The notes under the pieces are model-generated. The model worked only from the letters and a program-made list of their open reading frames with translations, had not been told where the DNA came from and made no database searches. Of a stretch of 64,000 bases of DNA, positions 5,909-60,704 are shown piece after piece; the stretch's first letter is position 1, and every line of letters starts with the position of its first letter. A program made the translations under genes and the position numbers. Origin of the DNA: an uncultured Alphaproteobacteria bacterium (lineage in GTDB: Bacteria; Pseudomonadota; Alphaproteobacteria; CAAHEQ01; UBA3637); contig CASEYR010000006.1 in NCBI GenBank assembly GCA_949292205.1, forward strand, positions 32,016 through 96,015, read 5' to 3'.

Positions 5909-7372
5909 TTAGATGTGGATGAGTCCGCGTGCAAAAGCGTAAATGGCAATTAAGGCAACGGCCACAATTGCAACGGCTAAAGCTTTTTCCGGTTCGGAAA
6001 ATAACGGCTCTTTAGAGGGGGTATCTTGTCTTGCCCAAATATAAAACGGGATACCTATTGCGATAAAGATAGCGGCCATCAGTAAGTAGCTGAAGCCGGC
6101 TGCATACAGCAACCAAATCGCATAAACCGTTCCTAATATTCCGGTTGTTAACGCTGTAAAGCGACTGACGCCGGTTGTTTTGGGTAATTCATTATCCTCG
6201 CATAATTTCCACAAAAATAAGCAGGACATCAGATAGGCCGGTAAGACCATAACTCCGGTAATCGATAACATGGTGTTCCACGCATTATTCGCAAAATAAA
6301 CCAAAATCATAGCCGCTTGCATTAAACCACTGGTAATCCAAAGAGATATATTGGGCGAGCCTGCTTTATTTTCGTATCCGAAAATTTTTGGAAATGTCCC
6401 ATTCTTGGCCATTGCATAGGGCATCTCTGCAACAATCATTGTCCAGGATAGCCAGCTGGCTAAAATGGCAATAACAACGCCGATGTTCATCAACCAAGAG
6501 CCCCAGGGACCAACAACAAGCTCTAAAACACCTGCTGTTGACGGATTGGCTACCGCTGCCATTTGAACACGTGTCATAAATCCAAAGGGCAATACAGATA
6601 GCAAAACATAAATGGCTAAACACCCTAAATAACCAATTAAAGTGGCTCGCCCAACATAGGATTGTTTTTCGGCGCGTCCCGATAAAACAACGGCTCCTTC
6701 AATACCAATGAACGCCCACAGTGTAACCAGCATCGTGTTTTTAACTTGGCTTCCTAAATCTCCTAATTTGTCGGTCGACAGCTTACCCCAGAAATCAAAA
6801 TCAAATTTATCCATATTGAAAACGGCTGTCATAATGATGATAAAGAGGAGTAGAGGAACGATTTTTGCAATTGTGACCACGAGGTTTATCATGGTCGCTT
6901 GCTTAACGCCTCTTAACACTAAGAAGTTAAAAAACCAAATTAAAAATGATCCGCCGATGACGGAATATAGATTGTTTCCTCCGGTAAAAACGCCGGGGAA
7001 GAAATAGTCCAGAGCATCCATTGTGATGACTGCGTAGCCGACGTTTCCGAAAATTTGACACAGCCAATAACTCCAACCGATATTAAATCCCATGTAGGGT
7101 CCGAATCCCGAACGTGCATACATATAAATACCCGATGTTAAATCGGGGCGTGCATCTGATAAAATCCGAAATGTGTTTGCTATAAAATACATCCCAAAGC
7201 CCGTTACTAACCAAGCTAGGATGACGGCTCCGACCGCTGCACTTTGTGCCATGTTTTGCGGAAGTGAAAAAATACCGCCACCGATCATGGAACTGACGAC
7301 GATACCGGCTAAACCGAAAATGCCTAATTTACCCGCAGGGCTCATTCCTTGTTGCTTATTTTTTTGAACCAT
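5909..7372 (-). CDS. APC-family basic amino acid antiporter (arginine:agmatine or arginine:ornithine exchanger, AaxC/ArcD/AdiC-like)
   Basis: 487 aa, about 12 TM segments; N-terminal GLAGIVVSSMIGGGIFSLPQNMA... closely resembles ArcD/AdiC-type exchangers; lies immediately downstream of the pyruvoyl ArgDC gene on the same strand. Confidence 0.72.
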   Translation of the reverse strand: MVQKNKQQGMSPAGKLGIFGLAGIVVSSMIGGGIFSLPQNMAQSAAVGAVILAWLVTGFGMYFIANTFRILSDARPDLTSGIYMYARSGFGPYMGFNIGWSYWLCQIFGNVGYAVITMDALDYFFPGVFTGGNNLYSVIGGSFLIWFFNFLVLRGVKQATMINLVVTIAKIVPLLLFIIIMTAVFNMDKFDFDFWGKLSTDKLGDLGSQVKNTMLVTLWAFIGIEGAVVLSGRAEKQSYVGRATLIGYLGCLAIYVLLSVLPFGFMTRVQMAAVANPSTAGVLELVVGPWGSWLMNIGVVIAILASWLSWTMIVAEMPYAMAKNGTFPKIFGYENKAGSPNISLWITSGLMQAAMILVYFANNAWNTMLSITGVMVLPAYLMSCLFLWKLCEDNELPKTTGVSRFTALTTGILGTVYAIWLLYAAGFSYLLMAAIFIAIGIPFYIWARQDTPSKEPLFSEPEKALAVAIVAVALIAIYAFARGLIHI

Positions 7373-7443
7373 TTTATCCTCCTTTTGACAAAGGGGCGGT
7401 TCTTGACTGTTACGCCTTGAACCGCCCGATTATCAATTGAACT

Positions 7444-8028
7444 TTACTTTTTCAACTCGACGGCCGGTGCGTTTTCAAAATTCAGAAATCCTAATGCCGT
7501 TAAAGAATATCCAAATGCTTGCTCTATATTGACAAAGTTATGGAAAAATTGAAAATCACTATGTTGTTCCATACCGCGAAGCTCTAACTCATGCTTCAAT
7601 GATTTTGTTAACCACATCTCGGCATGTGCTTTCGCAATGTCGTCATCAATAAACGTGTCAAAGTATTCAACATATTCGGCTGCCCAACCGCCGACAAATT
7701 GATCGTCTTTTTTACCCCAGACAATCCCGACACCTGTTGCAATTGCTTTGTGATCTTCACGACGGGCTCCGTTTCCGGCAATAATGACCTCTAATACGGC
7801 TCCGTGCTTAAATGTGTGGGCAACTTGATCAACGGGTACAATGTTTCCAAATAGTTCCGGCGGTAATACCGATGTGTATGGAACGACATTGAAGTCTTGA
7901 ATCTTGGCGGCGGTTAATGCCGAATCATAACAAAATGTTTCAAACGGTTGCGGCGGAATGCCGTCTTCTGCTTGACCGGCTCCGCCGGTGTGAAAAGCAA
8001 GTGTTGGATATCTTGTTCCATATGCCAT
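7444..8028 (-). CDS. pdaD: pyruvoyl-dependent arginine decarboxylase (PvlArgDC family; AaxB/PdaD-like)
   Basis: 194 aa; [12 protein letters not shown] aligns with the self-cleavage region N-x-I-R-I-S|S-I-M-P-P-E of archaeal PdaD and chlamydial AaxB (Ser gives the pyruvoyl group); AAGGAG SD. Confidence 0.72.
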
Positions 8029-12085: not shown

Positions 12086-14149
12086 ATGAAAAGCAAATAC
12101 CATATGACATCTATTGATGTAGCGGAAGAGTCAGCAGAGTTAAATAAAAGATATACCCGAATAAAGAGAAGTAAAGAGAATGAATCGGGGCGAAGTATGG
12201 TCGAAATGCTGGGCGTTCTGGCCTTGATGGGTGTGTTGGCTATTGCTGGTGTTATGGGGTATCGATGGGCTATGGATAAGTATCGGGCAACGGATACCAT
12301 CAATGAAGTAAATCGGCGGGCAATTGTTCATTCCACTCAACTGATGTCATCAGGCGTTTTAAATGCTTCCGAGTTTCCCCTGGAAACACGTCAAGGATAT
12401 GGCACAGAGGCAACTCTGCTGACCGGAAATCAAACGGGTTATTTTGAAATTTCTCTGACAGACGTTCCTGGTGGGGTGTGTCGCGAGATATTAAAATCCG
12501 ACTGGGTATGGCCGGTCATGAAGAAAGCCAACGGAATAGACTATACAGGCAATGCTGATATTTGTCGAACCGATACAGGCGTGCGAATGGTATTTGTATT
12601 TTCCAGTGATTTAAGCGGAAAGTCAGCAGACTTCAGACAACGTTGTCAAAAAGATGATGATTGTCGGAGTGCTTGCGGTGTCTGTGACAACGGATATTGC
12701 AGCAGTCAATGTCGAGAGGGAGAGACATGTGGACGAACCTATGATAATTCGGAATTTTATGCGTGTTGTTCAAACGATAAAGTCCTGAACGGCGTATGCT
12801 GTCCGACGATTATGAACGGACAATGTTGTGCCAGTATCGGCAGTTGTTGTCCTGCGGATAAGCCGTTAATGGACAAGGACGGGAACTGTCATACCTGTGA
12901 TGAGGAAGGCTCTGTCAATGTTACGGGCAATACGGTGATGTGTGGTATTTGCGACGGGCAGGACGGCCGAACGAAACGGGAGTTAAACGGAAATACATGT
13001 GTCTTGCCATGTCCTCCGGAAACACCTTTGATGGATAGAGATGGTAACTGTCATCGGTGTGATGAAGATTCTATTCAAATCACCGTTGCTAATAAATCAA
13101 AGTGTGATGTTTGTCCGGATAGAAATTATTGGGGACCAGGTGCACGATGTGAATTACCTTGTGGCATAAATTCATTTTTAGGAACTTACTCTAATTTGCC
13201 TTGTAATCCCTGTACGACAACAGACGCTATTAATATCACATATCGTTCCGCTGAAGAATGTATAACAAAATGTGATGGTAGCTCTCCAGATCGACCAAAG
13301 CGAATAGATATTTCGGCTGGGGCAGGATTGGCAACACACTTTTGTGCTTTGGCTTCTTGTCCTAAGGATAAACCGATACGTTCATCAAGTGGAACATGTT
13401 ATGCCTGTGGCGTTCGAACTGTAAATGTAACAGGATTTGAGCAAACATGTTTTTCATGTCCGGGCTATGTTTTAAGAGGGAAAATATGTACGAACACAGG
13501 GTGTCCAACAGGATCTCAAGCTAATGAAGAAGGGCGTTGTGTGTGTGATGACTCGACACAGGTGCAGGATTCAAGTGGAAATTGTTATCCCTGTGATTCG
13601 GGTACGATTATTGATGTAACGGGAGTTTCCGAAAACTGTGATGTGTGTCAAGGGAGGCGTGTTACCAAGGTTTTTTACCCAAGTGTTACAAAATGTATGA
13701 AGCCGTGTGCAGATGATGAGTTCTATACTGGTGAGGGATGTCGCAAATGTAATGATACGGCTGTCATAAGTATGTATGATGATGCTGAGTATTGTTTATA
13801 CTGTGATGGGCAAGAGGGACGTGCACAACGCGTATGCGTCCCAGGGGCGTGTCATGCTTGTGCGTTGGTGTGCTCTTCGGGTATGACGATGGCAGGAGAC
13901 GGCACGTGTCATACATGTGATGAAGTGGAACCGTTTAGTGTGTCAAACGGTATGACAGCCAGCTGTAATACTTTTTGTGCCGGAAAGAGATATCTGGTCG
14001 GAACGATGTGTTATAAGTGTCCGCCGGATACATACAGTCCCGATGCAAAACAATGTATTCAATGTCCTTATAACAATATGGAAACGCTAACACGAGAAGC
14101 TGATTGTCAGGCTTGTGGTGGTTCGTGGGACGGAACAACGTGTCAATAA
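12086..14149 (+). CDS. modular type IV pilin-like protein: class III (prepilin) signal peptide plus pilin-like head domain plus about 500-aa cysteine-rich tandem-repeat module
   Basis: AGAGGAG SD 7 nt upstream; 35-aa leader ending ...ENESG, then RSMVE with Glu at +5 and a 20-residue hydrophobic helix; Cys132/Cys160 fit a pilin D-region loop; residues 187-687 carry about 66 Cys with at least 5 repeats of about 35 aa (P-x-[DE]-[KT]-P-[LI]-x-D-x-D-G-N-C-H-x-C-D-E-x6-V-T-G-x4-C-x-x-C). Confidence 0.65.
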   Translation: MKSKYHMTSIDVAEESAELNKRYTRIKRSKENESGRSMVEMLGVLALMGVLAIAGVMGYRWAMDKYRATDTINEVNRRAIVHSTQLMSSGVLNASEFPLETRQGYGTEATLLTGNQTGYFEISLTDVPGGVCREILKSDWVWPVMKKANGIDYTGNADICRTDTGVRMVFVFSSDLSGKSADFRQRCQKDDDCRSACGVCDNGYCSSQCREGETCGRTYDNSEFYACCSNDKVLNGVCCPTIMNGQCCASIGSCCPADKPLMDKDGNCHTCDEEGSVNVTGNTVMCGICDGQDGRTKRELNGNTCVLPCPPETPLMDRDGNCHRCDEDSIQITVANKSKCDVCPDRNYWGPGARCELPCGINSFLGTYSNLPCNPCTTTDAINITYRSAEECITKCDGSSPDRPKRIDISAGAGLATHFCALASCPKDKPIRSSSGTCYACGVRTVNVTGFEQTCFSCPGYVLRGKICTNTGCPTGSQANEEGRCVCDDSTQVQDSSGNCYPCDSGTIIDVTGVSENCDVCQGRRVTKVFYPSVTKCMKPCADDEFYTGEGCRKCNDTAVISMYDDAEYCLYCDGQEGRAQRVCVPGACHACALVCSSGMTMAGDGTCHTCDEVEPFSVSNGMTASCNTFCAGKRYLVGTMCYKCPPDTYSPDAKQCIQCPYNNMETLTREADCQACGGSWDGTTCQ

Positions 14150-14193: not shown

Positions 14194-16587
14194 TTATTTG
14201 CGTTTATCCGGCGTACCTGCTTTTTGGGATTGCTTGAAAAACTGTGCTAAGCGTGCTTCAATCTTTCCGTTGATTGAGCCACTTGTCCAACGTCCGTTCT
14301 TATCCCTTTTGCCGGCTTTGTGGCCCGTCAGAATTTCCATGCCCTCGTCAATCGTTCGGACGGCATATAGGTGAAATAATCCTTTTTCAACCGCTTCAAC
14401 AACCTCCGGTCGTAACATCAGATTTTGAATGCTTGTCGCCGGAATGATAACGCCTTGGTCGCCGGTTAATCCGTTTTGTTTACAGACTTCAAAAAATCCC
14501 TCTATCTTTTCATTGACGGCTCCGACAGCTTGAACTTCTCCCAGCTGGTTAACCGAACCCGTAACCGCCAGAGATTGACTGAGCGGAATATCGGCAATCG
14601 CCGATAATAAACAATACAACTCTGCCGTCGATGCCGAATCTCCGTCTACTTCGCTATACGATTGTTCAAACACTAAACTGGCATCCAAAGACAACGGTGT
14701 GTGTTGTGCAAAGCGGGATGCTAAAAAGGAGGATAAAATTAACACGCCTTTTGTGTGAATCGGTCCGCCTAATTCAACTTCTCGCTCTATGTCAACAAAA
14801 TCACCGTGTCCCAGACGAATCTGGCACGTAACACGATTGGGGCGACCAAATGAGTAAATGCCGTAATCATGAACGACTAATGCATTGATTTGACCGACCT
14901 TGTGTCCGTCCGTATCTATGGCAATAATGCCTCGACGAATGGCTGTCAATAACTCTGTTTGAGCGTTCCCAAATCGCTTGCGTCGTTCGGCCAGGGCTTC
15001 CTCTATATGTGTCACATCAACAAATTTTGATTTTTGTGTGACGGCAATATAGTTGGCTTCCCTCATTAAATCGTTAACGTGAACTAAATAAGTGCTGAGC
15101 CGTTCTTGGTCGGTTGCCCAGCGAGAGGCTTGCTCAATCATACGCCGAATCGCCGGTGCCGAAAACGGACGGAGGCGTTCCGAACGAATGAAATTGGCCA
15201 GTAGTTGTGCATAGGCTCGCTCGGTTTGGGGTGTCCGCTCCATCTTTTCCGAAAAACGAGACTGTATTTTAAATAACTCACCAAACTCATCATCCTGTCC
15301 CGCCAAAGCGTAATAGAGAGAGGGCTCCCCGATTAAAACGACTTTGACAGACAGGGGAATCGGAGTCGGGTCTTGTGAAATAACGCCGAAAACAGAGTTG
15401 TCGTCAATGCCTGACTCCATCTTTATTTTCTTGGAAAACAGGCACCGTTTTAAAGCATTCCATGTCGACGGATTATCTAATAAATCTCGTGCTTCAATGA
15501 CTAAATACCCACCGTTTGCCAGATGAAGAGCTCCCGGACGAATCAAAGAAAAGTCCGTCATGAGTGAGCCTTGCAGCTGAATCCGCTCTATCTTTCCCAA
15601 CAAATTTGACAGCGTCGGATGGTTGACGTGAATAACCGGTGCCCCTTCGTCTGCTTTGTGACTGACGATTAAATTGACGGCGTAACGTGACCATAATGCG
15701 GCACTTTTATCAAAGTTTGTTTCTTCTGCTCCGTCCGTGTCCGGAATTAAAACTGAAACGTTATCTAACAGGCTTTGGCGAATACCGTCTAAAAATGCTT
15801 TGGCACCACTGTGCTTGGCATAACTTTTATTCAAATTCTTCATAACGGCATCAATCGTTCGGGAAGCTAATGAGATATTTAAATTATTTACCTCTTCTTG
15901 TTGATCGACTTCAAAAGACGGTGTATCACGGATCGCTTTTTCCAGTTTTGTTTGAGCCGTTTTCATTTGCTCTAAAATAGACTTGCGTTCCGGCTTTGGC
16001 AGGTTGTTGAAAACCTCCGGTGTTAAAACCTCGCCGTTCTTGGTGGGTGCAACAACAACCCCTTCGGGCATATGCATTAACGTCACATTTTCGCTTTGAA
16101 CCAATTTCTGAAGCGATGTGAAAAAGGCTTCTTTTGCAGCACGATACTTTTGATCAATCCGAGCGATTTTTATCTTATACGTTTCATCCGAAAAAACAGC
16201 ATTTAACTGCGTCTTGAGTGATGTGGCTAATTTTTTGATGTCCCGCTCAAAAATACGCCCTTTCCCTGCCGGAAAGTTAATGGCTTTCGGTTGATGCGGT
16301 GTATCAAAATTATGAACAAAGCACCAATCGTCCGGCGTCTTTTGCGTGGCTGCGTATTGTCGGATAACGGCTAATGATAAACTGGTTCGTCCGACCCCTT
16401 TCGGTCCCGTGCAAAAAATATTATATCCGTTCGCCTGCATTCGAATGCCGAAAGAAATAGCCTCTAGTGCTTGCTCTTGCCCGATGATGAGCGATTCATC
16501 GGACAGGGTTGTTAGGTCTTCGTCCGTTAATTGTGAGGGTGCATAAATCTGAGAAACTGTTAATTCATTTTCTGTGTGTTTTGACAT
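14194..16587 (-). CDS. Lon-like ATP-dependent protease (AAA+ ATPase plus C-terminal S16 peptidase domain; COG1067/LonB-like)
   Basis: 797 aa; Walker A TGPKGVGRTS; C-terminal LAVTGSVNQLGEVQAVGAVNEKIEGF, a Lon catalytic-Ser region; no LonA N-domain. Confidence 0.68.
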   Translation of the reverse strand: MSKHTENELTVSQIYAPSQLTDEDLTTLSDESLIIGQEQALEAISFGIRMQANGYNIFCTGPKGVGRTSLSLAVIRQYAATQKTPDDWCFVHNFDTPHQPKAINFPAGKGRIFERDIKKLATSLKTQLNAVFSDETYKIKIARIDQKYRAAKEAFFTSLQKLVQSENVTLMHMPEGVVVAPTKNGEVLTPEVFNNLPKPERKSILEQMKTAQTKLEKAIRDTPSFEVDQQEEVNNLNISLASRTIDAVMKNLNKSYAKHSGAKAFLDGIRQSLLDNVSVLIPDTDGAEETNFDKSAALWSRYAVNLIVSHKADEGAPVIHVNHPTLSNLLGKIERIQLQGSLMTDFSLIRPGALHLANGGYLVIEARDLLDNPSTWNALKRCLFSKKIKMESGIDDNSVFGVISQDPTPIPLSVKVVLIGEPSLYYALAGQDDEFGELFKIQSRFSEKMERTPQTERAYAQLLANFIRSERLRPFSAPAIRRMIEQASRWATDQERLSTYLVHVNDLMREANYIAVTQKSKFVDVTHIEEALAERRKRFGNAQTELLTAIRRGIIAIDTDGHKVGQINALVVHDYGIYSFGRPNRVTCQIRLGHGDFVDIEREVELGGPIHTKGVLILSSFLASRFAQHTPLSLDASLVFEQSYSEVDGDSASTAELYCLLSAIADIPLSQSLAVTGSVNQLGEVQAVGAVNEKIEGFFEVCKQNGLTGDQGVIIPATSIQNLMLRPEVVEAVEKGLFHLYAVRTIDEGMEILTGHKAGKRDKNGRWTSGSINGKIEARLAQFFKQSQKAGTPDKRK

Positions 16588-24584: not shown

Positions 24585-25391
24585 TTACTCGCGTGCGTGC
24601 TCGGTTTTCGGAGACGGTTGAGCCATCATCTGGTTATCAATCTTTTTTGCTTGTCTGCCAATTGCTACGGCAATGATGGCTTGGATTTGGGGAGTAATTT
24701 GTGTCTTGTTTTGTTTCATGATATCGGGCAACGATGTGCCGTGCTTACTTGTTACATGAACCGACGCCCCTAAATCCAATAATTTTTGAAGAACTTTGGG
24801 TTTGTTCATCAGAGTGGCACAAAAAACAGGGGATTCTTCTACCTTTGGAATCCGTTGATTTAAATCAACCCCGTTTTGATGAAATAAATCAATCATTGCC
24901 GGCATATCTTGTATTAATGCTATTGACAGGGGGGATAGCCCTCTTTTATTTTGCGTCATTCGTGCGCCGTTTTTCAGTAAAAAGCGTGCAATCCTTGTGC
25001 GGCCGGCAGTGACAGCAAAGATTAATGGCGTGTTGCCATTCTCATCAGATACGTTAACATCAGCTTTCAGTTGTAGAACCAAATTCTTTACGGTGTCTAA
25101 TTGGCTTCCCTCGGATACGACGGAAAGAAGTGTTTGTGAGGCTTGTTTCCGAACGGAGCGTCCGATATGTTTCGGGTTAAACAGACCACAGGGATTAACT
25201 GTATCGGCACATAGATTGATGTTAAGGCGTGCCATATTAAGCGCTATTTCAAGTCGTTGAGTTTGACGAGCTTGAATCTGTTTTTGTTGTTCCGGTGTCA
25301 ATCTGGCCCAGATAGATTGGATACGTAGTTGCTTTTTGTCGGGGGCTTCTATTGTAGGTTCCGGTCGTTTTTTGCGAAAAAATAATCCCAT
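24585..25391 (-). CDS. ankyrin-repeat protein
   Basis: Several 33-aa ankyrin units, e.g. GNTPLIFAVTAGRTRIARFLLKNGARMTQ and GLSPLSIALIQDMPAMIDLFHQNGVDLN. Confidence 0.75.
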   Translation of the reverse strand: MGLFFRKKRPEPTIEAPDKKQLRIQSIWARLTPEQQKQIQARQTQRLEIALNMARLNINLCADTVNPCGLFNPKHIGRSVRKQASQTLLSVVSEGSQLDTVKNLVLQLKADVNVSDENGNTPLIFAVTAGRTRIARFLLKNGARMTQNKRGLSPLSIALIQDMPAMIDLFHQNGVDLNQRIPKVEESPVFCATLMNKPKVLQKLLDLGASVHVTSKHGTSLPDIMKQNKTQITPQIQAIIAVAIGRQAKKIDNQMMAQPSPKTEHARE

Positions 25392-30106: not shown

Positions 30107-32770
30107 ATGGATGAAAAAAAACCACAGGAATTTCCGGCAAATCCGATGAATCAGGATTTATATAGTCAGATCGCTGCAGGCGATGAAATAAGAGTTGAAA
30201 AAAAACATAAAACATCTTTCATTATGTCTTTAATGATTGATTTTATGCGCTTGACTCTGTATCTTGACGAACAACGTCGGACACATCAAAAATTATTTCA
30301 TGCACTGGGGGTTTTTTGGGCCGGTGTGATGGTTATGCTGTATCTGTCTGGTATTATGATGTTTATTATTTTGGTGTATAGCTATATCCAATTCCCGACT
30401 TATGTTCGTCAGTATTTTGAGCGTAATGGTATTTTGTTTACCAAAATGGATATTCCGGGATATGTGGTGTCCCGTGTTGAGTTAAGAGATCTTCACGATA
30501 AAAACAATACATATAAAATTGATAGATTGGTGGTTCATTCAACGTTCTCTGACTTTTTGAACGGACGGGCTAAAAGTGTTTCTTTGAATGGTTTTCGATT
30601 GACTCTGGAAGAAGATACAAACAAAACGGAATCCGATAATTTGCTTGGATTGTTGTTGCATTTGAATGACATGCGTCAGTCTCAGGTCGCTATTCAGGTG
30701 GATTCATTGGAGGTGTCTGATGCGGTTTTAACGTTGAAAGGTCGGGATTATTCTCTGCCTATCTCTTTTTCTTTGACCGGTGTTTACGGAAAAGAAACAA
30801 ATATGAGTGCTTATGTGACGGTTGATGAGCCTTGGTTGGCTTTGAAGGGGCCGTTACTGATTCGTGGAAATGCTCGGGAAACAAATTGGGAGTTAGATAT
30901 TCAGTCCGGAATGATTACTTTCCCGAGTCGCCCTCCGGAAAAATTGTCGGGTAAGATTGCTGTGAATACACGTGATTTTAAGGTTCAATCCGTTTCTACA
31001 GATATCAAAATGCTCTTTAATCGATTTGAAAAAGCGGTGCAAATGAAGTTTGACCGAGATAACAAGAATAAGTTTAAGGCCTCTGTTGATTTAAAATGGC
31101 AGGATATTGCCGATGATGGTGTTGGGCGTAATGTGCGTTCAAATATTAATTTGGCTATGACCGGACTTGTTTTTGGAAAAGGAGGGGATGTTAAAACAAC
31201 AGAGCCGATTTCTGTCACGATGAAATCAAATTATTCAAAGGATTTGCAAGTGGAACGATTGACAGCTTCTTTGCGAGGGGAATTGTCTTGTCGTCTATAC
31301 GATTCTTGTAAATATCGTTTGAAAAATTCAGCTCAGTTGACGATGAATCGCTTGCGTGTCCCAGGACCGAGTGATATTTTGGAAAGTGATAGAACGGTTA
31401 CCATGATGTTGAATCCAACCGAAAAAACGTTTGAGTTGTTTTTTAAAAAGGGATTGTTGAGCTTTGATTTGTCTGGAACTCGCATCGGGTTTATCGGTAG
31501 AAAATTGACTTCTGAAGATGGAATATCTCTGCGTGCGGATAAAGCTAACATGAAGGGGACGTTGGATTTTCTGGGAAATAAAACTGAAGGGAGTTTGACT
31601 GCAACCGGTATTTCTTATGATACACCACATCAAGAAATAAAGCGTGCCTCTTTAACGGTTGCCAATATTTTTGATGATGAAAAAAATATAACTTTAAAGA
31701 GCCCTCAGGTAATATTGAAAAACAATTCGTATTTAAAGGCTCCGTTTGATTTGGATTATCAATCAGTTGATGGATCTGTGCGGGCGGTTTTGAAGTTTAA
31801 AAAAGAGGATCTACAAATTATTTTTGTCGGTGCATTCAGTCCAATGACCGGAAGCGTGAACGGGCAAATTATTATTCCGGCATTTGAATTGTCAAAATTG
31901 CCTAAGCCATTGTTGAGTTTTTCAGGTATTTTTCCCTTTGGCATGGATCAGGTTTCTGGAAAAATGGCTGTTTTTGGACGTATCAGCGGTACAACCAGAT
32001 CAGAGTTAAGCGGTCCGATGTATGTTGCTTTGAGAGATGTTGATTTTACTACGGAACAAGCACGTGTAAAAGGGTTGAATACCGTTTTGACTATTCAAAC
32101 ATTACGACCTTTTGTTACAGCGACAGCGCAACAGTTGTTTGCTAATGAAGTCAAAACCGTATTACCTTTCCAAAATGTGCGGATGTTCTTTAAAATTGAT
32201 AATCAATTTTTGCGATTGTCTTCTATGCTGGCTTCGGTAGCTGGTATCCCGCTTCGTTCTGATGTTGCCATCATTCCATATAAGGATATTAGTACCTTGA
32301 TTTATTTGAAAAGTCTAAGTCAAGATTTAACTCCTGCTGTTGGGCGTATTAAGGCAAATGGCTGGGAGATCGGCGGTAAGCCTCAAGGGACGATCTTATT
32401 GCCTCTGGAAATTAAAAATAAGCAAATGGCTGTTAAAAATGCAAGTGTTCGGATTGTCGGCGGTGAAGCTTTTTATAAGGGAGACGCAAAAAACAAGCCG
32501 GTCTTTTTAGAGGAGGGCAATCAGGTCAACCTGATCAATGGTGAAATTATGATTGATGAGCCTTTGGGGTTATCAAATGAAACATCGGTTCAATTTAATT
32601 TAACCGGGGCTATTCCTCCATCCGGAAAACGAATAACAATCCAAGAGTCTTTCAGAGGTTCTATTCGGAATTGGATACAGGATGCTCCGCTAAATGAGGA
32701 TGTCCCAAGTTCGATTAGAACCCAACAAAATGCTGTCTTTGATCAGGCCGAAAAGTTGCGTGTTAAATAA
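30107..32770 (+). CDS. large membrane-anchored hypothetical protein (AsmA-like/DUF3971-like architecture)
   Basis: 887 aa; N-terminal TM helices, then long beta-rich, Gly/Ser/Thr-rich periplasmic region; family assignment is tentative. Confidence 0.4.
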   Translation: MDEKKPQEFPANPMNQDLYSQIAAGDEIRVEKKHKTSFIMSLMIDFMRLTLYLDEQRRTHQKLFHALGVFWAGVMVMLYLSGIMMFIILVYSYIQFPTYVRQYFERNGILFTKMDIPGYVVSRVELRDLHDKNNTYKIDRLVVHSTFSDFLNGRAKSVSLNGFRLTLEEDTNKTESDNLLGLLLHLNDMRQSQVAIQVDSLEVSDAVLTLKGRDYSLPISFSLTGVYGKETNMSAYVTVDEPWLALKGPLLIRGNARETNWELDIQSGMITFPSRPPEKLSGKIAVNTRDFKVQSVSTDIKMLFNRFEKAVQMKFDRDNKNKFKASVDLKWQDIADDGVGRNVRSNINLAMTGLVFGKGGDVKTTEPISVTMKSNYSKDLQVERLTASLRGELSCRLYDSCKYRLKNSAQLTMNRLRVPGPSDILESDRTVTMMLNPTEKTFELFFKKGLLSFDLSGTRIGFIGRKLTSEDGISLRADKANMKGTLDFLGNKTEGSLTATGISYDTPHQEIKRASLTVANIFDDEKNITLKSPQVILKNNSYLKAPFDLDYQSVDGSVRAVLKFKKEDLQIIFVGAFSPMTGSVNGQIIIPAFELSKLPKPLLSFSGIFPFGMDQVSGKMAVFGRISGTTRSELSGPMYVALRDVDFTTEQARVKGLNTVLTIQTLRPFVTATAQQLFANEVKTVLPFQNVRMFFKIDNQFLRLSSMLASVAGIPLRSDVAIIPYKDISTLIYLKSLSQDLTPAVGRIKANGWEIGGKPQGTILLPLEIKNKQMAVKNASVRIVGGEAFYKGDAKNKPVFLEEGNQVNLINGEIMIDEPLGLSNETSVQFNLTGAIPPSGKRITIQESFRGSIRNWIQDAPLNEDVPSSIRTQQNAVFDQAEKLRVK

Positions 32771-53325: not shown

Positions 53326-54126
53326 TTATACCGGTAGATTGATTTCATACCCATCCTGCTCTAATAAATCCATTATACGAACTAAGAAAGAACGTTCCTT
53401 ATCGTCTACACGTCCATCAGCCATAATAACATTCAGCATTGCTTCAACCAACCCTTGAACGGTTGTTTGATCCTTTGCCAAAGATTTCGCCAATGCAACG
53501 GAAAAACACTCTTCATCCGGAGCCAACGAGATAATATAATCATTCAACTCCTGATCATCATAAGACAAATCGGTTGTTCTGGATTTAGCATACTCAAAAA
53601 CTTTCTGACGCTCGGTCTTATCGCGAGCCCCATCAATTGCAACCAAGTACATCAAGACAGTTACTTCCTGTGCAATTCGCTCAATAGCTTTTGCGAAATC
53701 ATCCTTCGGATCGGAAACAACAACTGCCGAAGACTTATCCCGAACCGATATACCCAAACGATTTTGAATAAACTCATATGGATTATCATAAACACGACCG
53801 GATGTAATATCTCTGATTGCGGAAATATGTCCCACTTTAATCAAACGTGGAGCCCGCACATCCATAGCAACACCATCAATATACAGATCACCCTTCGTAT
53901 GGATAATTCGTCGAATCAAAATATCTCTGTCTTTTACGTTACCGGATAAAGACTTATAAGACATAGACACCAGCAAAGAGATACCGGCAGCATCTTCCTG
54001 ACCTTGTTCCAAAGTTGATTTAATATTTTCAGGGACAGCTTTAGCTTGTTCCGGCGTTGAAACAGCAACCGTTCCCCGAGTCAACAATCGAATAGCTTCT
54101 CGTAAATCTTGAGTTTTAATTTCCAT
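53326..54126 (-). CDS. hypothetical protein with C-terminal TerB-like domain; last gene of the MoxR operon
   Basis: Start taken at MEIKTQDL, preceded by AAGAGGA and overlapping the DUF4381 stop by 11 nt; C-terminal VIMADGRVDDKERSFLVRIMDLL resembles the TerB/DjlA-N fold; no vWA MIDAS motif. Confidence 0.45.
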   Translation of the reverse strand: MEIKTQDLREAIRLLTRGTVAVSTPEQAKAVPENIKSTLEQGQEDAAGISLLVSMSYKSLSGNVKDRDILIRRIIHTKGDLYIDGVAMDVRAPRLIKVGHISAIRDITSGRVYDNPYEFIQNRLGISVRDKSSAVVVSDPKDDFAKAIERIAQEVTVLMYLVAIDGARDKTERQKVFEYAKSRTTDLSYDDQELNDYIISLAPDEECFSVALAKSLAKDQTTVQGLVEAMLNVIMADGRVDDKERSFLVRIMDLLEQDGYEINLPV

Positions 54127-54598
54127 ATTTTTTCCTCTTAAAGAACTCAGTAATTGCGACACGTCCGGCTTTATACAAAGCTTCAGGATGATCGGTTACC
54201 AGAGTATTATCGGGCAAATAAGTCGAAAAAGCAAGTAATTTTGCTTGTTCATCCGAAAAAGCCCCTTGTGTTTTTGTTTTTAAAAAATCAGCCCAATCAT
54301 CTTCCGATAACGAAGCGACTTGCTTTCTGGGATAGCGAATCAGAGCAATTCTCTTAAAGAGTGCAGACATTTGTCGAGCCAAAATAACAGGATTATCTGT
54401 TTTTTGATACATTGATTTTAATTCACGCAAAGCATACTGTTTCGGTCCGGAACGCCAGAAAAAGAAAGCGACAAGACAACAGCTCAAGACAAAAATCAGA
54501 GCCGTGACAACGATCCACCAACCGATAGCCGGTGGCCACCAAGAAGGTTCAACGGGGATATGAATATCACGAAGTCCCGATAAATCAATTTCCGTCAT
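54116..54598 (-). CDS. DUF4381-family membrane protein (MoxR-operon component)
   Basis: 160 aa; one TM helix WWPPAIGWWIVVTALIFVLSCCLVAFFFW; 4-nt start/stop overlap with the upstream DUF58 gene. Confidence 0.6.
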   Translation of the reverse strand: MTEIDLSGLRDIHIPVEPSWWPPAIGWWIVVTALIFVLSCCLVAFFFWRSGPKQYALRELKSMYQKTDNPVILARQMSALFKRIALIRYPRKQVASLSEDDWADFLKTKTQGAFSDEQAKLLAFSTYLPDNTLVTDHPEALYKAGRVAITEFFKRKKYGN

Positions 54599-55515
54599 AC
54601 AGCATCCTCTCGACTAAACCGACTCAGCAGACTCAAATAGTCATCTGTTGTTTGAATCGGCAAATATCCCCAACCATATTTTTTAACAGCCTGTTGAATT
54701 GCATCTGTTTGCTTGTTAAAAGATGATTCAAAAGTCTCCCGAACCGATTTTTCATAAGCATTCACAGATACCGTTTGGCTACCATCTGTCATAGCCCATA
54801 CCCCCTCGGGTAAATTTTTCTCCAATCTATCGTAGATGTGAATCAAAGCGATTGTGCGACGAGAGCCCATTCTTCCCAACCGAAAAGCCGTATTCTCATC
54901 AAAGTCATGAAAATCGCTACATATAAAGAGCAAAGCACCACTTTTCAAAGTCGGCTCCAATTCCTGCAGAGCCTGATTCAGAGTTGTTTCATCGGTTGGG
55001 ACAACTGTCGGCAAAGAGGCTGCCACCAAATCGGGAATCAAAGCAAGAGAACCTTTATCACTTAAGCTTAACGACATGGTTTTAATCATATTCGGCAACA
55101 TAATCAACGTATGAACACGATCTTTTTTTTGCTCAGCCACCACAGCCAAGAACATTGCCATTCGTGCAGAGATAACGGATTTAAACTCCCCTTGACTGGC
55201 GAACTTCATATGACTCCGCATATCACAGACGATATAAACCGGACGTTCTTTTTCTTCCGTATATAATTTTGTAAAGGGCTTTCCATACTTTGCCGTAATC
55301 CGCCAATCAATTTGCCGAATATCATCACCGGGCTGATAAGCTCTTACCTCTTGAAAATCAAGACCACGTGTCCGAAAGACAGATCGCGTTTCACCGACAC
55401 CAAGATAAACCGGTTGAAGTGTTGCCTTTAATGAAATATTCCCAGCCGACGCCTTCAAAGCAATCAAGCTATCTTGATCCACGACAACGGGACTGTATGT
55501 TTCATCAAAAGCCAT
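54595..55515 (-). CDS. DUF58-family protein (vWA-like, MoxR partner)
   Basis: 306 aa; conserved VRAYQPGDDIRQIDWRITAKYGKPFTKLYTEE block typical of DUF58. Confidence 0.75.
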   Translation of the reverse strand: MAFDETYSPVVVDQDSLIALKASAGNISLKATLQPVYLGVGETRSVFRTRGLDFQEVRAYQPGDDIRQIDWRITAKYGKPFTKLYTEEKERPVYIVCDMRSHMKFASQGEFKSVISARMAMFLAVVAEQKKDRVHTLIMLPNMIKTMSLSLSDKGSLALIPDLVAASLPTVVPTDETTLNQALQELEPTLKSGALLFICSDFHDFDENTAFRLGRMGSRRTIALIHIYDRLEKNLPEGVWAMTDGSQTVSVNAYEKSVRETFESSFNKQTDAIQQAVKKYGWGYLPIQTTDDYLSLLSRFSREDAV

Positions 55516-55523
55516 TACTCCCC

Positions 55524-56486
55524 CTATGGTAACGGCACCCGCTCTAACAACATACGCAAAACATCATCAGTCGTTACATGGGCCGATTTAGCCTCAAATG
55601 ACAACAAGATACGATGACGCAACACGTCGGGAATAAGCGCTTGAATATCTTTAGGCGTTACAAAATCACGTCCGTCCAGCCAAGCGGCGGCACGAACGAC
55701 GATGTCCAAAGCAATTGTTCCGCGAGGACTGGCACCGTATCGGATTAACCGAGCCAAATCCGCACCATAAGCTTCCGGATGACGAGTCGCCATAATAAAC
55801 TGGATTAAGTACTCTTCCAGTTCCGGAGACATATAGATATCCAAGACCTCACGTCTGGCTTCAAAAATTTGTTCTTGTTTAATTCTATTAAAGCGAGGCG
55901 TTGGAATCTTTTTTTCCTCCCCCTGAACCAGTTTTAAAATACGCCGTTCCGATTCGATATCGGGGTAACCGATTTTAACATACATCAAGAACCGATCCAA
56001 CTGCGCTTCCGGCAAGTTATAAGTTCCTTCCTGTTCAATCGGATTCTGAGTCGCCATCACCATAAATAAGTCCGGCAACTGATAGGTTTCATTTCCGATA
56101 GTCGCCTGTCGTTCACCCATAGCTTCCAACAAAGCGGACTGGACTTTTGCCGGAGCCCGATTAATTTCATCAGCCAAAATCAAGTTATTAAAGATAGGTC
56201 CTTTTTGGAAAAAGAAGCCATTTGTTTCTGGGCGGTAGACATCACTACCGGTAATATCAGAGGGCAACAAATCCGGAGTAAATTGAATTCGTTGAGATCC
56301 GGCATCAATGGTATCAGCCAACACTTTAATGGCTTTTGTTTTTGCTAACCCCGGCAATCCCTCAACCAACAAATGCCCATCACTCAACAAAGCAATCAAC
56401 AATTTTTGAACCAACCCTTTTTGCCCAATAATGCGACTGTTCATATATTCTTGCAATCGTTCAAAATTATCTCTGATAATAGTCAT
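55524..56486 (-). CDS. MoxR-family AAA+ ATPase
   Basis: 320 aa; Walker A EGLPGLAKTK, Walker B LILADEINRA, sensor regions. Confidence 0.85.
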   Translation of the reverse strand: MTIIRDNFERLQEYMNSRIIGQKGLVQKLLIALLSDGHLLVEGLPGLAKTKAIKVLADTIDAGSQRIQFTPDLLPSDITGSDVYRPETNGFFFQKGPIFNNLILADEINRAPAKVQSALLEAMGERQATIGNETYQLPDLFMVMATQNPIEQEGTYNLPEAQLDRFLMYVKIGYPDIESERRILKLVQGEEKKIPTPRFNRIKQEQIFEARREVLDIYMSPELEEYLIQFIMATRHPEAYGADLARLIRYGASPRGTIALDIVVRAAAWLDGRDFVTPKDIQALIPDVLRHRILLSFEAKSAHVTTDDVLRMLLERVPLP

Positions 56487-56614: not shown

Positions 56615-57295
56615 ATGGTTAATTTATCCAAGCAAAAGTCTTTGTCGGCACGGGCTCGAACAAAATACGTCAAAACTCGTCAACACCCACTCAGCAAAAG
56701 GCAGATACAACGCTTTAAAGAAAAATCTAATCAAAAACAGCCCCCTGAATTATTACGTCAAAAACAACTTGAACAGCAAAAGATGATTGCCGAGATTCGT
56801 CGAGAAAAAAATCCGGACAAGTTAGCCGAACGGATGAATCAGGCAAAAAAAAGCGGTTTAACAGCTCTATTACAACAAGATGCCGACCGTCTTCAAAAGA
56901 TGCAAAAAGCTCGTGAGCGGTTAAAAGAGGCCGTCACACGTTTATTATCGACACAAGTTTCGGCCTCTGTTAAAGAGGGCTCCTCAAAGATTCAATCGGG
57001 ACATATTGATTCCGGATTACGGGACATTCAAGACACCGGTCGTGACGGAGCTATCGGCAATGATATAGCAGATGCCAGCTCTGATTTAGCCAAAAACGCC
57101 AAAAAACTTGCCGGATTAACGGGCAAGCATTTTGATTCAATTATGTATAGAACACTTCGCGATAATTCTCGTCCGGCAGACACCATCAATCAAGAGAAAG
57201 ACAAAGAAGACCGCGACCAAAATCTGGAAGGTCGTATTACGCAAAAATCAACAATTCGTCAGGTTATGGAAAAAAAGAGAAGAGACGGACGATAA
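56615..57295 (+). CDS. highly charged Lys/Arg/Glu/Gln-rich hypothetical protein
   Basis: AAAGGAGG SD; 226 aa, no signal peptide; predicted coiled-coil and low complexity. Confidence 0.45.
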   Translation: MVNLSKQKSLSARARTKYVKTRQHPLSKRQIQRFKEKSNQKQPPELLRQKQLEQQKMIAEIRREKNPDKLAERMNQAKKSGLTALLQQDADRLQKMQKARERLKEAVTRLLSTQVSASVKEGSSKIQSGHIDSGLRDIQDTGRDGAIGNDIADASSDLAKNAKKLAGLTGKHFDSIMYRTLRDNSRPADTINQEKDKEDRDQNLEGRITQKSTIRQVMEKKRRDGR

Positions 57296-57436
57296 GATAT
57301 CATCCATTCAAGAATTACCTAAAATCAGGCATTTTTTAATATTACGAGCATCTGATTCAAAACAAATGCCCCATCTCTAAAAAAATGGGGGCTTGTATTA
57401 AAAACGCAAAGGCCGTTGGCAGAACAACCTAACACA

Positions 57437-59305
57437 CTATATCGGTTTCATTTTTTTCAGACCTATCAATTCACGTGCCGTTATTAAAATAGCTTTTCGA
57501 GCGGCAGCCTTACCACGCAACTGATAAGGTGTTAATTCTTTCATATCACGATTTAACGACATCCAAACAGAAGAAGGCATATTCCGAACAAATGCATCAC
57601 GTACTGCCATCGGAGCCTGATGTAAAGCCAAAACAGCCACCTGACGGTCTATATACTTCAACAAGATTTTAATTTGATCATCTGATAAGTGTGCCAAATC
57701 ATCAAATTGCATCATCCAAGAACCCACTTTTTTTGCAACCTCCGGCTCTTTTTTAGAAACAGCAGATATCAAATCTGTTTTATCCTGCTTATTCATCGCT
57801 TTCAAAATCGCTGTTGCTTTTTCCACACCTGTTTTGCTTCCCGATTGTTGGATTAGTTCACACACTCGGACTGCAATCTCTCGTTCCAGTTTCTGACGAA
57901 CATCGGAACGCACATGCTTTAAGTGTGTTAAATGAATCATCAGACGCGTTGCAAAATCCCTATCCAGCAACCCCAAGGCCCGAGCAGACACATCATCAGA
58001 TAAATGGAATAAGATCAAAGCCGCCGTTTCAGGTTTTTGTTCAGCCAAAAAAGGAACCAAGATACCGATATCCAGTTCATTTAAACGACTCCAAACCGTT
58101 TGTCCGCCGGAAGACAACCGAATTTCAGAATACAGCTGATCACTGGTTTCCTTTGGCATCGTTCGATCAAAAACACGTCGCACTTGTTCGTTTGTTCCGG
58201 TTACACCGATCGGAGATGACACATCATGAATAAATTTATCCAAGCATTTCTGAACATCTTCAACACGAACCGATCCGAGAGAAGAAATTGCTTGCCCCAA
58301 CGAACGCACATCGGCCTCATCCATGCGTCGGAATAAATCGCGAGCCACCCCATCGCCCAAAGTCAAAATCAAGATAGCGGCTTGCTGTATCGGAGAATAT
58401 CCCCGCCCTTTATACAGCGGATAGCGAATCCAATTTTTCAAGACTCGAATAGCGCGTTCTGGATTTTGTCGACAGACCAAGATAGCCTTTTCCAAAAGGG
58501 AACGTTCAACACGTTTTATTTCAACCGGTTTAGCAACGGGACCACTGATTAGTTGACGCATCATAGGAATGATGAAGCCGGCACACAACCAGACGATAAC
58601 GCCCAACAATAAGAACAAGCCAAATCCTTGAGCCCAAGCAATCGGTTTAATTCCCAAGAAAGTTCTGGCATCTTCCGAGAAAGGCAAGTTCAAAACCTCC
58701 AGAGTGTCCCCTCTTTCCTCTTCAAATCCAACGATTGCCTTAATTAAAGTCGTATAATTTTCCATTTCAGCGCGCGTTCTGGGCTGATATAGGACACTTC
58801 CGTCCTGTTCTTGAACCATCTGTCCATCAATCAGCACACTAACGGACAAGCGTTGAACGATACCGGCGGTAGATTGAATCCATGATTTTGTGACGGACAA
58901 ATCCGAAAGAGCCTCATTTTGAAAAACGACACTTTCTTTTTCCCCCGAAGCCAGAGCGCTTCCCTCAAAAGAGTCCCCGCTCGGAATAACATCTTTTTGA
59001 TGAACGGTTTCCCGAGTTAAGTTTAAATCGACCTGAACGGTTGCATAAACCGTACCTGCGCCGGTTGTTCTTTCAATCAAAGAAACGATTTCTTTTTGCA
59101 GAGCCTCGGCATATTGTCGTTGAAGAACAGCCTGTTCTCCGAAAGAGTTTTCTGCGGGTTGTTTTTCGGCAAGGACGCCCCAAACAACTTTTTCACCGGC
59201 AGTCAGTTGAGCCATTCTCGGGATAAAATATCCAACCGTTCCGGCAAGAATCATAGCCAGAATTAAAACTGTTATCAGACGTATCAGCTCGGCTGTTTTT
59301 GTCAC
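57437..59305 (-). CDS. FliF-FliG fusion protein (short FliF/SctJ-like ring module plus TM, fused to a full FliG rotor/switch domain)
   Basis: aa 1-250: N-terminal TM, YATVQVDLN and RLSVSVLIDG...RGDTLEVLNLPF plus a second TM, as in the FliF C-terminal half; aa about 292-622: FliG-like N, middle and C domains, including LAEQKPETAALILFHLSDDVSARALGLL and MMQFDDLAHLSDDQIKILLKYID. Confidence 0.68.
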   Translation of the reverse strand: MTKTAELIRLITVLILAMILAGTVGYFIPRMAQLTAGEKVVWGVLAEKQPAENSFGEQAVLQRQYAEALQKEIVSLIERTTGAGTVYATVQVDLNLTRETVHQKDVIPSGDSFEGSALASGEKESVVFQNEALSDLSVTKSWIQSTAGIVQRLSVSVLIDGQMVQEQDGSVLYQPRTRAEMENYTTLIKAIVGFEEERGDTLEVLNLPFSEDARTFLGIKPIAWAQGFGLFLLLGVIVWLCAGFIIPMMRQLISGPVAKPVEIKRVERSLLEKAILVCRQNPERAIRVLKNWIRYPLYKGRGYSPIQQAAILILTLGDGVARDLFRRMDEADVRSLGQAISSLGSVRVEDVQKCLDKFIHDVSSPIGVTGTNEQVRRVFDRTMPKETSDQLYSEIRLSSGGQTVWSRLNELDIGILVPFLAEQKPETAALILFHLSDDVSARALGLLDRDFATRLMIHLTHLKHVRSDVRQKLEREIAVRVCELIQQSGSKTGVEKATAILKAMNKQDKTDLISAVSKKEPEVAKKVGSWMMQFDDLAHLSDDQIKILLKYIDRQVAVLALHQAPMAVRDAFVRNMPSSVWMSLNRDMKELTPYQLRGKAAARKAILITARELIGLKKMKPI

Positions 59306-59388: not shown

Positions 59389-59682
59389 TTACAAAGTCTC
59401 TTTAAAAGTAATAATACTTTCTGCACGTCCTTTATCAGGATTAACAACGAACAGTCGGCGTCCCGATTCGTGACCGATAGTCAACACGCACAACATTTCC
59501 CCGCAAGGCAAGACATCGCGAATACTTTCCGGAAAAACCAGAGTCACCTCAGACGATTGAATAGGCAGAGGCTTGCTTTTCATTCGAAGATCTGTTATTT
59601 TAAGAGCGACGGCAACCAAACCGGCTAGGATTAATAAGCTCATGCCGATAGTAAGTGCTTTCAAGAAAGTTATTGTTTTCAT
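59389..59682 (-). CDS. small membrane-anchored hypothetical protein upstream of fliF-fliG
   Basis: Start at MKTITFLKALT with an N-terminal TM helix; the ORF-track start at 59766 would overlap rluD. Confidence 0.4.
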   Translation of the reverse strand: MKTITFLKALTIGMSLLILAGLVAVALKITDLRMKSKPLPIQSSEVTLVFPESIRDVLPCGEMLCVLTIGHESGRRLFVVNPDKGRAESIITFKETL

Positions 59683-59705
59683 TTTTGACCTCACTGGAGT
59701 AGAAT

Positions 59706-60704
59706 ATGGATACGGAATCCGATTTTGATGACGATCAAGACATAGTATACACGATGTCCACCCCACTTGTCACGCCAAAAGTGACATCAGATACTCCGAA
59801 ATTGCGTTTAGACAAGTTTTTAGCAGAAACATTTCCGCAATTTTCCCGCAGTCAAGTCGCACGAATGATTGAAGCTGATGCCGTTCGACTACAATCAGAT
59901 CGGACTCGAGTTTTATCATCGGATGATAAAGTCAAAGAGGGGGATATTTATGAATTGACGCCACCGGAAGCTGTTTCCGCGAACCCCGAGCCCGAGGATA
60001 TTCCACTGGATATTTTGTATGAAGATGACGATTTATTGGTTGTCAACAAACCGGCAGGATTAGTTGTTCACCCTGGGGCCGGCAATCCGCGAGGAACTCT
60101 GGTGAATGCACTGCTGGCACACTGCAAAGACTCACTTTCAGGGATCGGTGGCGTTAAACGCCCGGGTATTGTCCATCGGATTGACAAAGACACCAGTGGG
60201 ATTTTAGTTGTTGCCAAGAATGATTTTACGCACCGACATTTATCCGAACAATTTGCCGAACACACGATTGAGCGTATTTACCAAGCTTTTGTTTGGGGAT
60301 ATATTCAAAAAACGACGGGCATCATAACCGGAGACATCGGACGATCTCAGACGAACCGCCAAAAAATGGCTATAGTTCCGCACGGCAAAAAAGCCGTTAC
60401 GCATTATGAGCGTATTGCCGTTTTCGGGAATGGTATAGCCTCGCACATTCAATGCATTTTGGAAACGGGAAGAACACATCAGATTCGTGTCCATATGGCG
60501 TCTAACGGACACTCTTTAATCGGAGATCCGGTCTATGGTGTTATTCCCAAAACGGCACCGGATTTTGCGAAGTATTTTCCACGTCAAGCCCTGCATGCCG
60601 GCTTTTTAGGTTTTATTCACCCGACAACGGGGGAACATATGTCTTTTGAAGCTCCCTTACCGGATGACATGCAAGAACTACAGGACAATTTAACAGCTCT
60701 GTAA
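59706..60704 (+). CDS. rluD: 23S rRNA pseudouridine synthase, RluD/RluA family
   Basis: S4-like LRLDKFLAETFP and catalytic HRIDKDTSGILVVAKN; GGAG SD; start could be the later Met at 59754. Confidence 0.8.
   Translation: MDTESDFDDDQDIVYTMSTPLVTPKVTSDTPKLRLDKFLAETFPQFSRSQVARMIEADAVRLQSDRTRVLSSDDKVKEGDIYELTPPEAVSANPEPEDIPLDILYEDDDLLVVNKPAGLVVHPGAGNPRGTLVNALLAHCKDSLSGIGGVKRPGIVHRIDKDTSGILVVAKNDFTHRHLSEQFAEHTIERIYQAFVWGYIQKTTGIITGDIGRSQTNRQKMAIVPHGKKAVTHYERIAVFGNGIASHIQCILETGRTHQIRVHMASNGHSLIGDPVYGVIPKTAPDFAKYFPRQALHAGFLGFIHPTTGEHMSFEAPLPDDMQELQDNLTAL

Follow-up and report, generated by a model that had tools for sequence, protein, structure and literature searches.

A natural FliF-FliG fusion with an RBM3-only ring module in uncultured Alphaproteobacteria, and its possible reuse as a fixed membrane ring

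Introduction

What would a bacterium do with a protein that joins part of the flagellar MS-ring protein FliF to the motor switch protein FliG, encoded in a stretch of chromosome that has no other flagellar genes? This question is raised by a gene in a 64,000-nucleotide piece of DNA (the window; positions 32,016 to 96,015 of contig CASEYR010000006.1, assembly GCA_949292205.1) from an uncultured alphaproteobacterium. The gene occupies positions 57437..59305 on the minus strand, has a GTG start, and encodes 622 amino acids (aa); positions below are those of the window unless a related locus is named. The protein is a natural fusion in which FliF is cut to its first transmembrane (TM) helix, the third ring-building motif (RBM3) with a short collar, the second TM helix, and the C-terminal helix, joined covalently to a three-domain FliG. 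We favor, with moderate confidence, the reading that the fusion forms a selected, non-rotating ring derived from the earliest intermediate of polar flagellar assembly, a flagellar part reused as a fixed membrane ring.

Results

The gene was characterized as an open reading frame (ORF), by comparison with Pfam, NCBIfam, and the Protein Data Bank (PDB), and by an AlphaFold2 model and Foldseek. A ribosome-binding site (AGGAG) precedes the ORF, and a consensus scan indicated two terminator-like hairpins directly 3' of its stop codon (57369..57430, minus strand). Pfam matches above the gathering cut-offs were obtained for YscJ_FliF_C (PF08345; aa 136-209, 59.5 bits), FliG_N (PF14842; aa 304-400, 78.9 bits), FliG_M (PF14841; aa 416-479, 35.6 bits), and FliG_C (PF01706; aa 516-614, 74.6 bits). 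The first of these covers profile positions 83-147, the C-terminal half of the profile only. The top PDB sequence match is 8z4d, a 945-aa Vibrio chain named [quoted passage not shown] and it is followed by ordinary FliG chains and FliF MS-ring chains. Against the NCBIfam equivalogs, the fusion scores 121.5 bits for fliG (TIGR00207, cut-off 226.7) and 48.7 bits for fliF (TIGR00206, cut-off 129.75). It departs from FliG and FliF in several defining respects (equivalog scores, charged ridge, EHPQ motif, and RBM1/RBM2), yet it clearly derives from both. A preliminary description of the window had claimed that a single 622-aa ORF joins a shortened FliF to FliG, and the ORF call, the Pfam matches, and the PDB matches bear this out. 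Within the N-terminal 250 aa, matches to FliF were obtained in Pfam, PDB, and Foldseek comparisons alike. MgtE_N reached 20.4 bits against a cut-off of 25.9; this is attributed to the known homology of FliG and MgtE, and an MgtE transporter function was rejected.

The AlphaFold2 model, for which the input was a 28-sequence family alignment, has a mean predicted local distance difference test (pLDDT) score of 79. From the N to the C terminus, a TM helix (residues 2-35) leads into an alpha/beta module that has long beta hairpins; a second TM helix (221-253), two short helices (270-294), and an all-helical FliG (305-615) come next. Hydropathy indicates exactly two hydrophobic segments, at about aa 1-32 and 219-254, in which TM1 is placed at about aa 9-32 (59210..59281) and TM2 at about aa 221-250 (58556..58645); these and all other features of the fusion lie on the minus strand. 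Both TM segments had been anticipated in the preliminary description, with the second placed at about aa 212-240.

The periplasmic part between them is an RBM3 domain with a shortened beta-collar (aa 54-210; 58676..59146), as indicated by Pfam, PDB alignments, AlphaFold2, and Foldseek. Its predicted elements are helices at 54-81 and 178-192 and strands at 86-108, 126-159, and 201-206, and the PDB alignments with FliF span residues 48-101 and 132-252 of the fusion. Foldseek hits of this module include the RBM3/collar (S-ring) chains of FliF from Salmonella and Vibrio (E about 1e-7, TM-score about 0.6) and, more distantly, SpoIIIAG (5wc3; E 2e-2). The tip of the collar (residues 110-134) has low pLDDT and is deleted in relatives. 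The fusion has no match to RBM1/RBM2 (SctJ-like; Pfam YscJ_FliF, PF01514), and in the model TM1 and the first RBM3 helix are no more than about 20 residues apart; therefore, the periplasmic piece is the FliF-specific RBM3 and is not SctJ-like. The preliminary description had spoken of a FliF/SctJ-like module. The FliF origin stands, while the SctJ-like RBM1/RBM2 are gone and what is retained is the FliF-specific, SpoIIIAG-like RBM3 and collar.

The junction lies at the native C terminus of FliF. A helix at aa 268-294 (58424..58504), which includes "...QNPERAIRVLKNWI", was recognized by alignment and in the AlphaFold2 model, where helices 270-294 have pLDDT of about 89-90. The QNPERAIRVLKNWI segment aligns with the final residues (NPExAAKVIKxWLAEE) of stand-alone FliFs (loci L022 and L023, and protein P0007), and its Trp is invariant. 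A short-peptide PDB search with this helix gave no match. The FliG N terminus begins about 10-15 residues past the helix. The join thus falls exactly at the native fliF-fliG boundary, and by alignment the FliG-binding helix of FliF appears to be retained.

FliG is present with its N-terminal (aa 304-400; 58106..58396), middle (aa 416-479; 57869..58060), and C-terminal (aa 516-614; 57464..57760) domains. PDB alignments with FliG structures cover residues 306-614, and the C-terminal half of the model matches FliG in Salmonella C-ring structures by Foldseek (E about 1e-11). QKPE in the middle domain and MMQF at the hinge line up, in the PDB and family alignments, with the canonical EHPQ and MFxF positions, as had been proposed from the sequence.

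Residues needed for rotation were compared column by column in an alignment of 31 family members and 25 canonical FliGs. The charges on the FliG_C ridge that contact the stator protein MotA are, in the E. coli numbering of Lloyd and Blair (1997), K264, R281, D288, D289, and R297. The K264 column has Lys in 24 of 25 canonical FliGs and in 4 of 31 family members, with His in the window protein. At R281, 23 of the 25 canonical sequences have Arg; the family has mostly Gln, Ala, Lys, Thr, or Ser, and the window protein has Ser. D288 is Glu or Asp in 24/25 canonical FliGs, compared with Lys (12), Gln (5), Arg (4), Glu (4), and Asp (3) in the family and Arg in the window protein. Asp or Glu occupies the D289 column in all 25 canonical sequences; family members have Glu (10), Asp (2), or other residues (19), and here the window protein keeps Asp. 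The R297 column is Arg or Lys in 24/25 canonical FliGs, and the family shows a gap (8), Lys (5), or Arg (4) among others, with Gln in the window protein. Four of the five stator-contact charges are therefore replaced in the window protein and one is kept, and across the family these charges are mostly gone. At the position two residues past the former Arg, 31/31 family members have Trp (Trp581 in the window protein), in contrast to Ala or Gly in canonical FliGs.

The EHPQR motif of the FliG middle domain is the contact for FliM. Its Glu is found in 25/25 canonical FliGs and in 9/31 family members, and the window protein reads QKPE(T). Divergence of this motif does not track the loss of adjacent FlhF and FlhG genes, a relation that was ruled out by protein P0009, which has KKPE yet keeps both partners. 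The FliG described earlier as complete is complete in its domains (N, M, and C) and is not complete as a torque-generating rotor, given the replaced ridge charges.

Together, the lost stator charges, the EHPQ change, and the lack of RBM1/RBM2 argue against a rotating, export-competent basal body. They bear directly on the alternative that the fusion is the working MS-ring/rotor protein of an unusual flagellum whose other genes are scattered in the genome, which we consider unlikely. Flagellar genes of Alphaproteobacteria are often dispersed, and the FliG domains, RBM3, and the FliF C-terminal helix are all intact and under selection. Engineered FliF-FliG fusions also assemble rings (PDB 8z4d; PMC10941966). 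Against a working rotor are the replacement of 4/5 stator-contact charges in a pattern that is family-wide, the absence of RBM1 and RBM2, and the divergence of EHPQ.

The gene is not a singleton but belongs to a family. An exhaustive HMMER search over 1.84 billion representatives yielded about 30 clusters (50% identity) of 530-650 aa with the same architecture, and these outrank ordinary FliGs (about 335 aa). Members with a source name are all from uncultured Alphaproteobacteria metagenome-assembled genomes (MAGs) and are all annotated as "hypothetical protein"; the source bacteria are mostly from animal guts, and one record names a roe deer abomasum as its sample. No further members came from a word-indexed profile search based on the 28-sequence alignment, and a single-protein scan of reference genomes gave no match. 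With alignment A1, a scan of a genome collection returned three MAG loci only, and a metagenome scan returned no fusions; the ordinary operons with separate fliF and fliG that it did return (L022-L024) were used as contrast. A neighbor-joining tree of the FliG part, the phylogeny that the preliminary description had called for, places the short fusions in one clade apart from the 25 canonical FliGs sampled. The family is monophyletic in this tree and apparently undescribed.

The fusion gene is under strong purifying selection, as judged from substitution rates. For close pairs, the ratio of nonsynonymous to synonymous substitutions (dN/dS) comes to 0.125 and 0.157, and conservation extends to every domain when the window protein is compared with a 71%-identical relative. 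Could the gene be a decaying, functionless relic of a lost flagellum? Canonical functional motifs are indeed degraded and partner genes are progressively lost along the tree, as in a relic. We judge this highly improbable, because ORFs are intact in the about 30 clusters, in which identity to the window protein falls to about 22%; dN/dS is within 0.12-0.16; new invariant residues such as W581 have been fixed; and synteny, the GTG start, and the ribosome-binding site are conserved in the family.

The gene neighborhood changes along the tree. Contrast loci L022 and L023 have the ordinary order flgB-flgC-fliE-fliF-fliG-fliH-fliI. In the basal family loci L009 and L013, the fusion is followed in order by FliN, an FlhF-like signal recognition particle (SRP) GTPase, and an FlhG-like ATPase. 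Loci L010/L011, L012, and L015 have a small membrane protein, the fusion, FlhF, and FlhG. The crown clade (the window and L016, L001/2/5, L003/6/7, L004/8, and L014) has the small membrane protein and the fusion only. Partner genes are progressively lost along the tree, probably stepwise, from a context with FliN, FlhF, and FlhG to the fusion with a 97-aa protein only. The label "orphan" given earlier is true for the window's clade, while deeper relatives keep FliN, FlhF, and FlhG directly downstream.

The assignments of these partners differ in score. The FlhG-like protein of the relatives reaches 133 and 113 bits against FleN and FlhG structures, compared with 66 against MinD. For the FlhF-like proteins, which have a conserved N-terminal segment, the best NCBIfam match is TIGR03499 (FlhF), under its cut-off. 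FliN of the relatives scores 82.1 bits against a cut-off of 84.05.

Within the 64-kb window, Pfam searches of 29 ORFs, including all those not recognizable by eye as housekeeping, found no other flagellar families, and tblastn with the relatives' FliN, FlhF, and FlhG gave no match. Both results confirm the earlier statement that the window has no other flagellar genes; fliM, fliN, and motAB are likewise lacking alongside the fusion within it. In about 250 kb of flanks from nine distinct family contexts, no flagellar genes beyond FliN, FlhF, and FlhG were found, with export, rod, hook, and stator genes among those sought, and the genes that usually lie between fliG/fliN and flhF in large operons (fliH to flhA) are missing there.

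Neighborhoods weigh on the working-rotor alternative from both sides. The relatives' retention of FliN, FlhF, and FlhG speaks for it; FliM and all flagellar genes other than these three are not in the nine contexts or the window, however, and the gap from fliH to flhA between the fusion or fliN and flhF in relatives speaks against it. The same contexts bear on another proposal, that the ring serves as a scaffold for a leftover type III export apparatus whose genes lie elsewhere, a secretion remnant of the kind proposed for the flagellar orthologues of Chlamydia or for Buchnera basal bodies. We consider this improbable. No family member has FlhA, FliI, or FliPQR genes beside it; the partners that are conserved (FlhF and FlhG) act in positioning and are not export components; and RBM2, the domain that encloses the export gate, is missing from the fusion and kept in the chlamydial protein. 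The comparison with secretion remnants of intracellular bacteria drawn in the preliminary description is weakened by this absence of RBM2. In its favor are the apparent host association of the organism (gut-derived relatives and an ankyrin-repeat protein in the window) and the precedent of a natural FliF-FliG fusion in the non-flagellated Chlamydiaceae, beside FlhA and other remnants (PMC4768692).

The strand of the fusion gene also encodes, 83 nt upstream of it, a bitopic membrane protein of 97 aa (59389..59682, minus strand), and the two genes probably share a transcript. This small protein consists of a TM helix and a beta domain of four strands that bears an invariant CGxx[LIV]C motif, has its own ribosome-binding site, and is called as a gene in public assemblies. 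A homologue is present in all eight distinct FliN-less loci examined and absent from the two FliN-bearing loci. The next gene is a divergent rluD-type pseudouridine synthase (59706..60704, plus strand), identified by Pfam. An rluD-type gene adjoins the module in all nine distinct family loci sampled, which makes it a synteny marker; in L009 it is on the same strand, downstream of flhG. As called, the start codons of the 97-aa gene and rluD (59682-59706) are 23 nt apart, so that either the promoters necessarily reach into coding sequence or rluD truly starts at a more internal position.

The remaining neighbors are as first listed: besides the 97-aa membrane protein and RluD, they are MurJ, the MoxR operon, and a 226-aa charged protein, to which DUF192 can be added. 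The window as a whole is ordinary chromosome, with dnaN-recF-gyrB, rpoBC, recA, ligA, and similar genes. An operon of MoxR (AAA_3), DUF58, DUF4381, and a TerB-domain protein (53326-56486, minus strand) lies just downstream of the fusion. VWA/TPR/BatD genes are found a few kb from the fusion in L013 and L014, and Bat/MoxR-type genes thus recur near it in this lineage. The 226-aa protein (56615-57295, plus strand) is rich in Lys, Glu, Arg, and Gln and convergent with the fusion gene; it has no significant Pfam match and, by tblastn, no match in related loci outside near-identical assemblies. In the basal locus L009 (6585-9913), a TolQ-TolR-(283-aa ORF)-TolB cluster immediately precedes the fusion gene and is encoded in the same orientation. 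Uncharacterized neighbors in L009, L013, L015, and L020 have no Pfam match.

Several other genes of the window were noted. A 687-aa protein without a Pfam match (12086-14149, plus strand) has an N terminus, "...GRSMVEMLGVLALMGV", that resembles a prepilin-type cleavage/methylation signal with an unusually long leader. By tblastn, similar N termini occur in L014, L013, L001/L005, and L015 (a 532-aa ORF between the small membrane protein and the fusion), and the protein may belong to a multi-copy lineage-specific family. One ORF (24585-25391, minus strand; Ank_2, 86 bits) encodes an ankyrin-repeat protein, a type often found in bacteria associated with eukaryotic hosts. A 797-aa Lon-like protease (14194-16587, minus strand), an atypical variant, combines LonB-like AAA, LonC helical, and Lon_C domains. 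A pyruvoyl-dependent arginine decarboxylase (5909-8028, minus strand) adjoins an amino-acid permease, possibly as an acid-resistance pair; the same pair is found a few kb from the fusion in L015.

Fusions of other kinds also occur. P0037 (648 aa; L020:1702-3648) is a separate RBM3-only fusion that keeps most of the stator-contact charges and groups with the canonical FliGs in the neighbor-joining tree; it is followed in L020 by a 120-aa ORF without assignment, FliN, and a second such ORF of 238 aa. It could represent either a transitional stage or a separate origin. P0048 (850 aa; L021:1852-4404) and P0125 (809 aa) represent an independent lineage in which full-length FliF (RBM1/2, PF01514) is fused to FliG. 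P0048 is on a 9-kb contig without flagellar neighbors (DUF6781, UbiB, and MgsA-type AAA genes are present) and has kept most stator-contact charges. More than one origin is therefore possible for orphan FliF-FliG fusions.

Discussion

The suggestion in the preliminary description that the locus is a remnant of an MS-ring/C-ring base used for something other than motility is favored by the lost stator charges, the loss of RBM1/RBM2, the EHPQ change, and purifying selection. We propose a model along these lines. The fusion would insert in the inner membrane, where its RBM3 domains could build an S-ring-like periplasmic ring, and each subunit would carry its own FliG, giving a 1:1 FliG ring beneath the membrane. 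Lacking a stator interface and the RBM2 inner ring, such a ring would be expected neither to rotate nor to house a type III export gate.

Polar assembly of flagella offers a starting point for this ring. The structured N-terminal domain of FlhF binds FliG-MC, and FliG bound to FlhF still binds FliF-C (Dornes et al. 2024, PMC11236974). The gene set of the deeper relatives corresponds to this earliest assembly intermediate, and we therefore read the family as an intermediate, the FliF-FliG complex recruited to the pole by FlhF, that may have been retained as a stand-alone static ring in the membrane. The ring would probably act as a polar landmark or docking platform, with the Trp-bearing surface of FliG_C and the 97-aa membrane protein as candidate new partner sites.

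In Campylobacter jejuni, division at the poles is inhibited by FlhG in conjunction with proteins of the MS ring and switch (Balaban and Hendrixson 2011, PMC3228812), so that such parts can serve a non-motility role at the poles. By analogy, spatial control of division is a possible role for the fusion. Any specific cellular role, that of a polar landmark included, is speculative. A stronger form of the proposal is that the hosts have no flagellum and that the FlhF/FlhG-positioned FliF-FliG ring, RBM3-only and with a small membrane partner, is an autonomous, non-rotating, pole-marking organelle that serves neither motility nor secretion and might, for instance, help to site division or anchor other polar machinery; we put this forward as doubtful.

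Several points weigh against the proposal of a reused static ring. We infer ring formation, localization, and a role in division. The contexts compared are the 64-kb window and relatives' flanks of up to 10 kb per side, and a flagellar gene set may lie elsewhere in the genomes. The polar-positioning part of the model rests on relatives: FlhF and FlhG genes are not adjacent to the fusion in the window's clade, where they were not found in the window or flanks and are possibly absent from the clade. The neighbor-joining tree carries no support values. P0037, which keeps most of its stator charges and sits near FliN, indicates that the loss of RBM1/RBM2 may precede the loss of motility, and thus this loss alone may be no proof that flagellar function has gone.

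If the hosts' genomes are without the rest of the flagellum, the family would mean that an MS-ring/FliG core, along with the GTPase/ATPase pair that positions it, can be maintained by selection for a job that is neither motility nor secretion. A natural minimal MS ring would also become available, built from RBM3 only and with FliG held at 1:1 by a covalent link; it would be useful for studies of ring assembly, the FliF:FliG stoichiometry question, and FlhF-FliG recruitment. A pole-marking ring, if true, would be an exaptation of the flagellar base. More broadly, the family bears on the stepwise loss and reuse of flagellar parts in host-associated bacteria.

Among known systems, canonical FliF and FliG share with the fusion two TM helices that flank RBM3 and its collar, the FliF C-terminal "NPE..A..V.K.W" helix, and FliG N, M, and C domains with an MFxF-like hinge, and the fusion matches Salmonella and Vibrio S-ring and FliG structures. 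Unlike them, it is one polypeptide without RBM1/RBM2, with a short collar, QKPE, an invariant Trp, and replaced stator charges; it scores under the NCBIfam equivalog cut-offs and is encoded outside a flagellar operon. The FlhF/FlhG polar assembly module (PMC11236974, PMC3228812) resembles the set encoded by relatives, which have the early-recruitment proteins FliF-FliG, sometimes FliN, FlhF, and FlhG/FleN. In model organisms, however, this module builds a complete rotating flagellum, whereas here no further flagellar genes accompany it in the contexts searched.

SpoIIIAG, which forms a non-flagellar membrane ring in the sporulation channel (PMC4768692), has a similar RBM3-like ring-building fold with a beta insertion. 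This likeness is distant and at the fold level only, and SpoIIIAG lacks a FliG part and occurs in another lineage and context. Engineered Salmonella and Vibrio fusions (8z4d, 8z4g; PMC10941966, PMC11481574) have the same covalent 1:1 FliF-FliG arrangement and form rings, but their FliF is full-length, for a total of 945 aa, and their FliG is able to engage the stator.

The nearest precedent, and the only natural FliF-FliG fusion described in the literature searched, is the FliF-FliG protein of Chlamydiaceae (CT719 type). It has about 330 aa, with RBM2, a second RBM-like domain, and a FliG-M-like segment only (Bergeron 2016, PMC4768692). Like the fusion in the window, it is a natural, shortened FliF joined to FliG-like sequence outside a full flagellar cluster, and its hosts are regarded as non-flagellated. 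The published description sets the two apart: the protein reported here has 622 aa, RBM3 as its only ring-building motif, the FliF C-terminal helix, and a full FliG N-M-C, and it is alphaproteobacterial, with relatives linked to FliN, FlhF, and FlhG.

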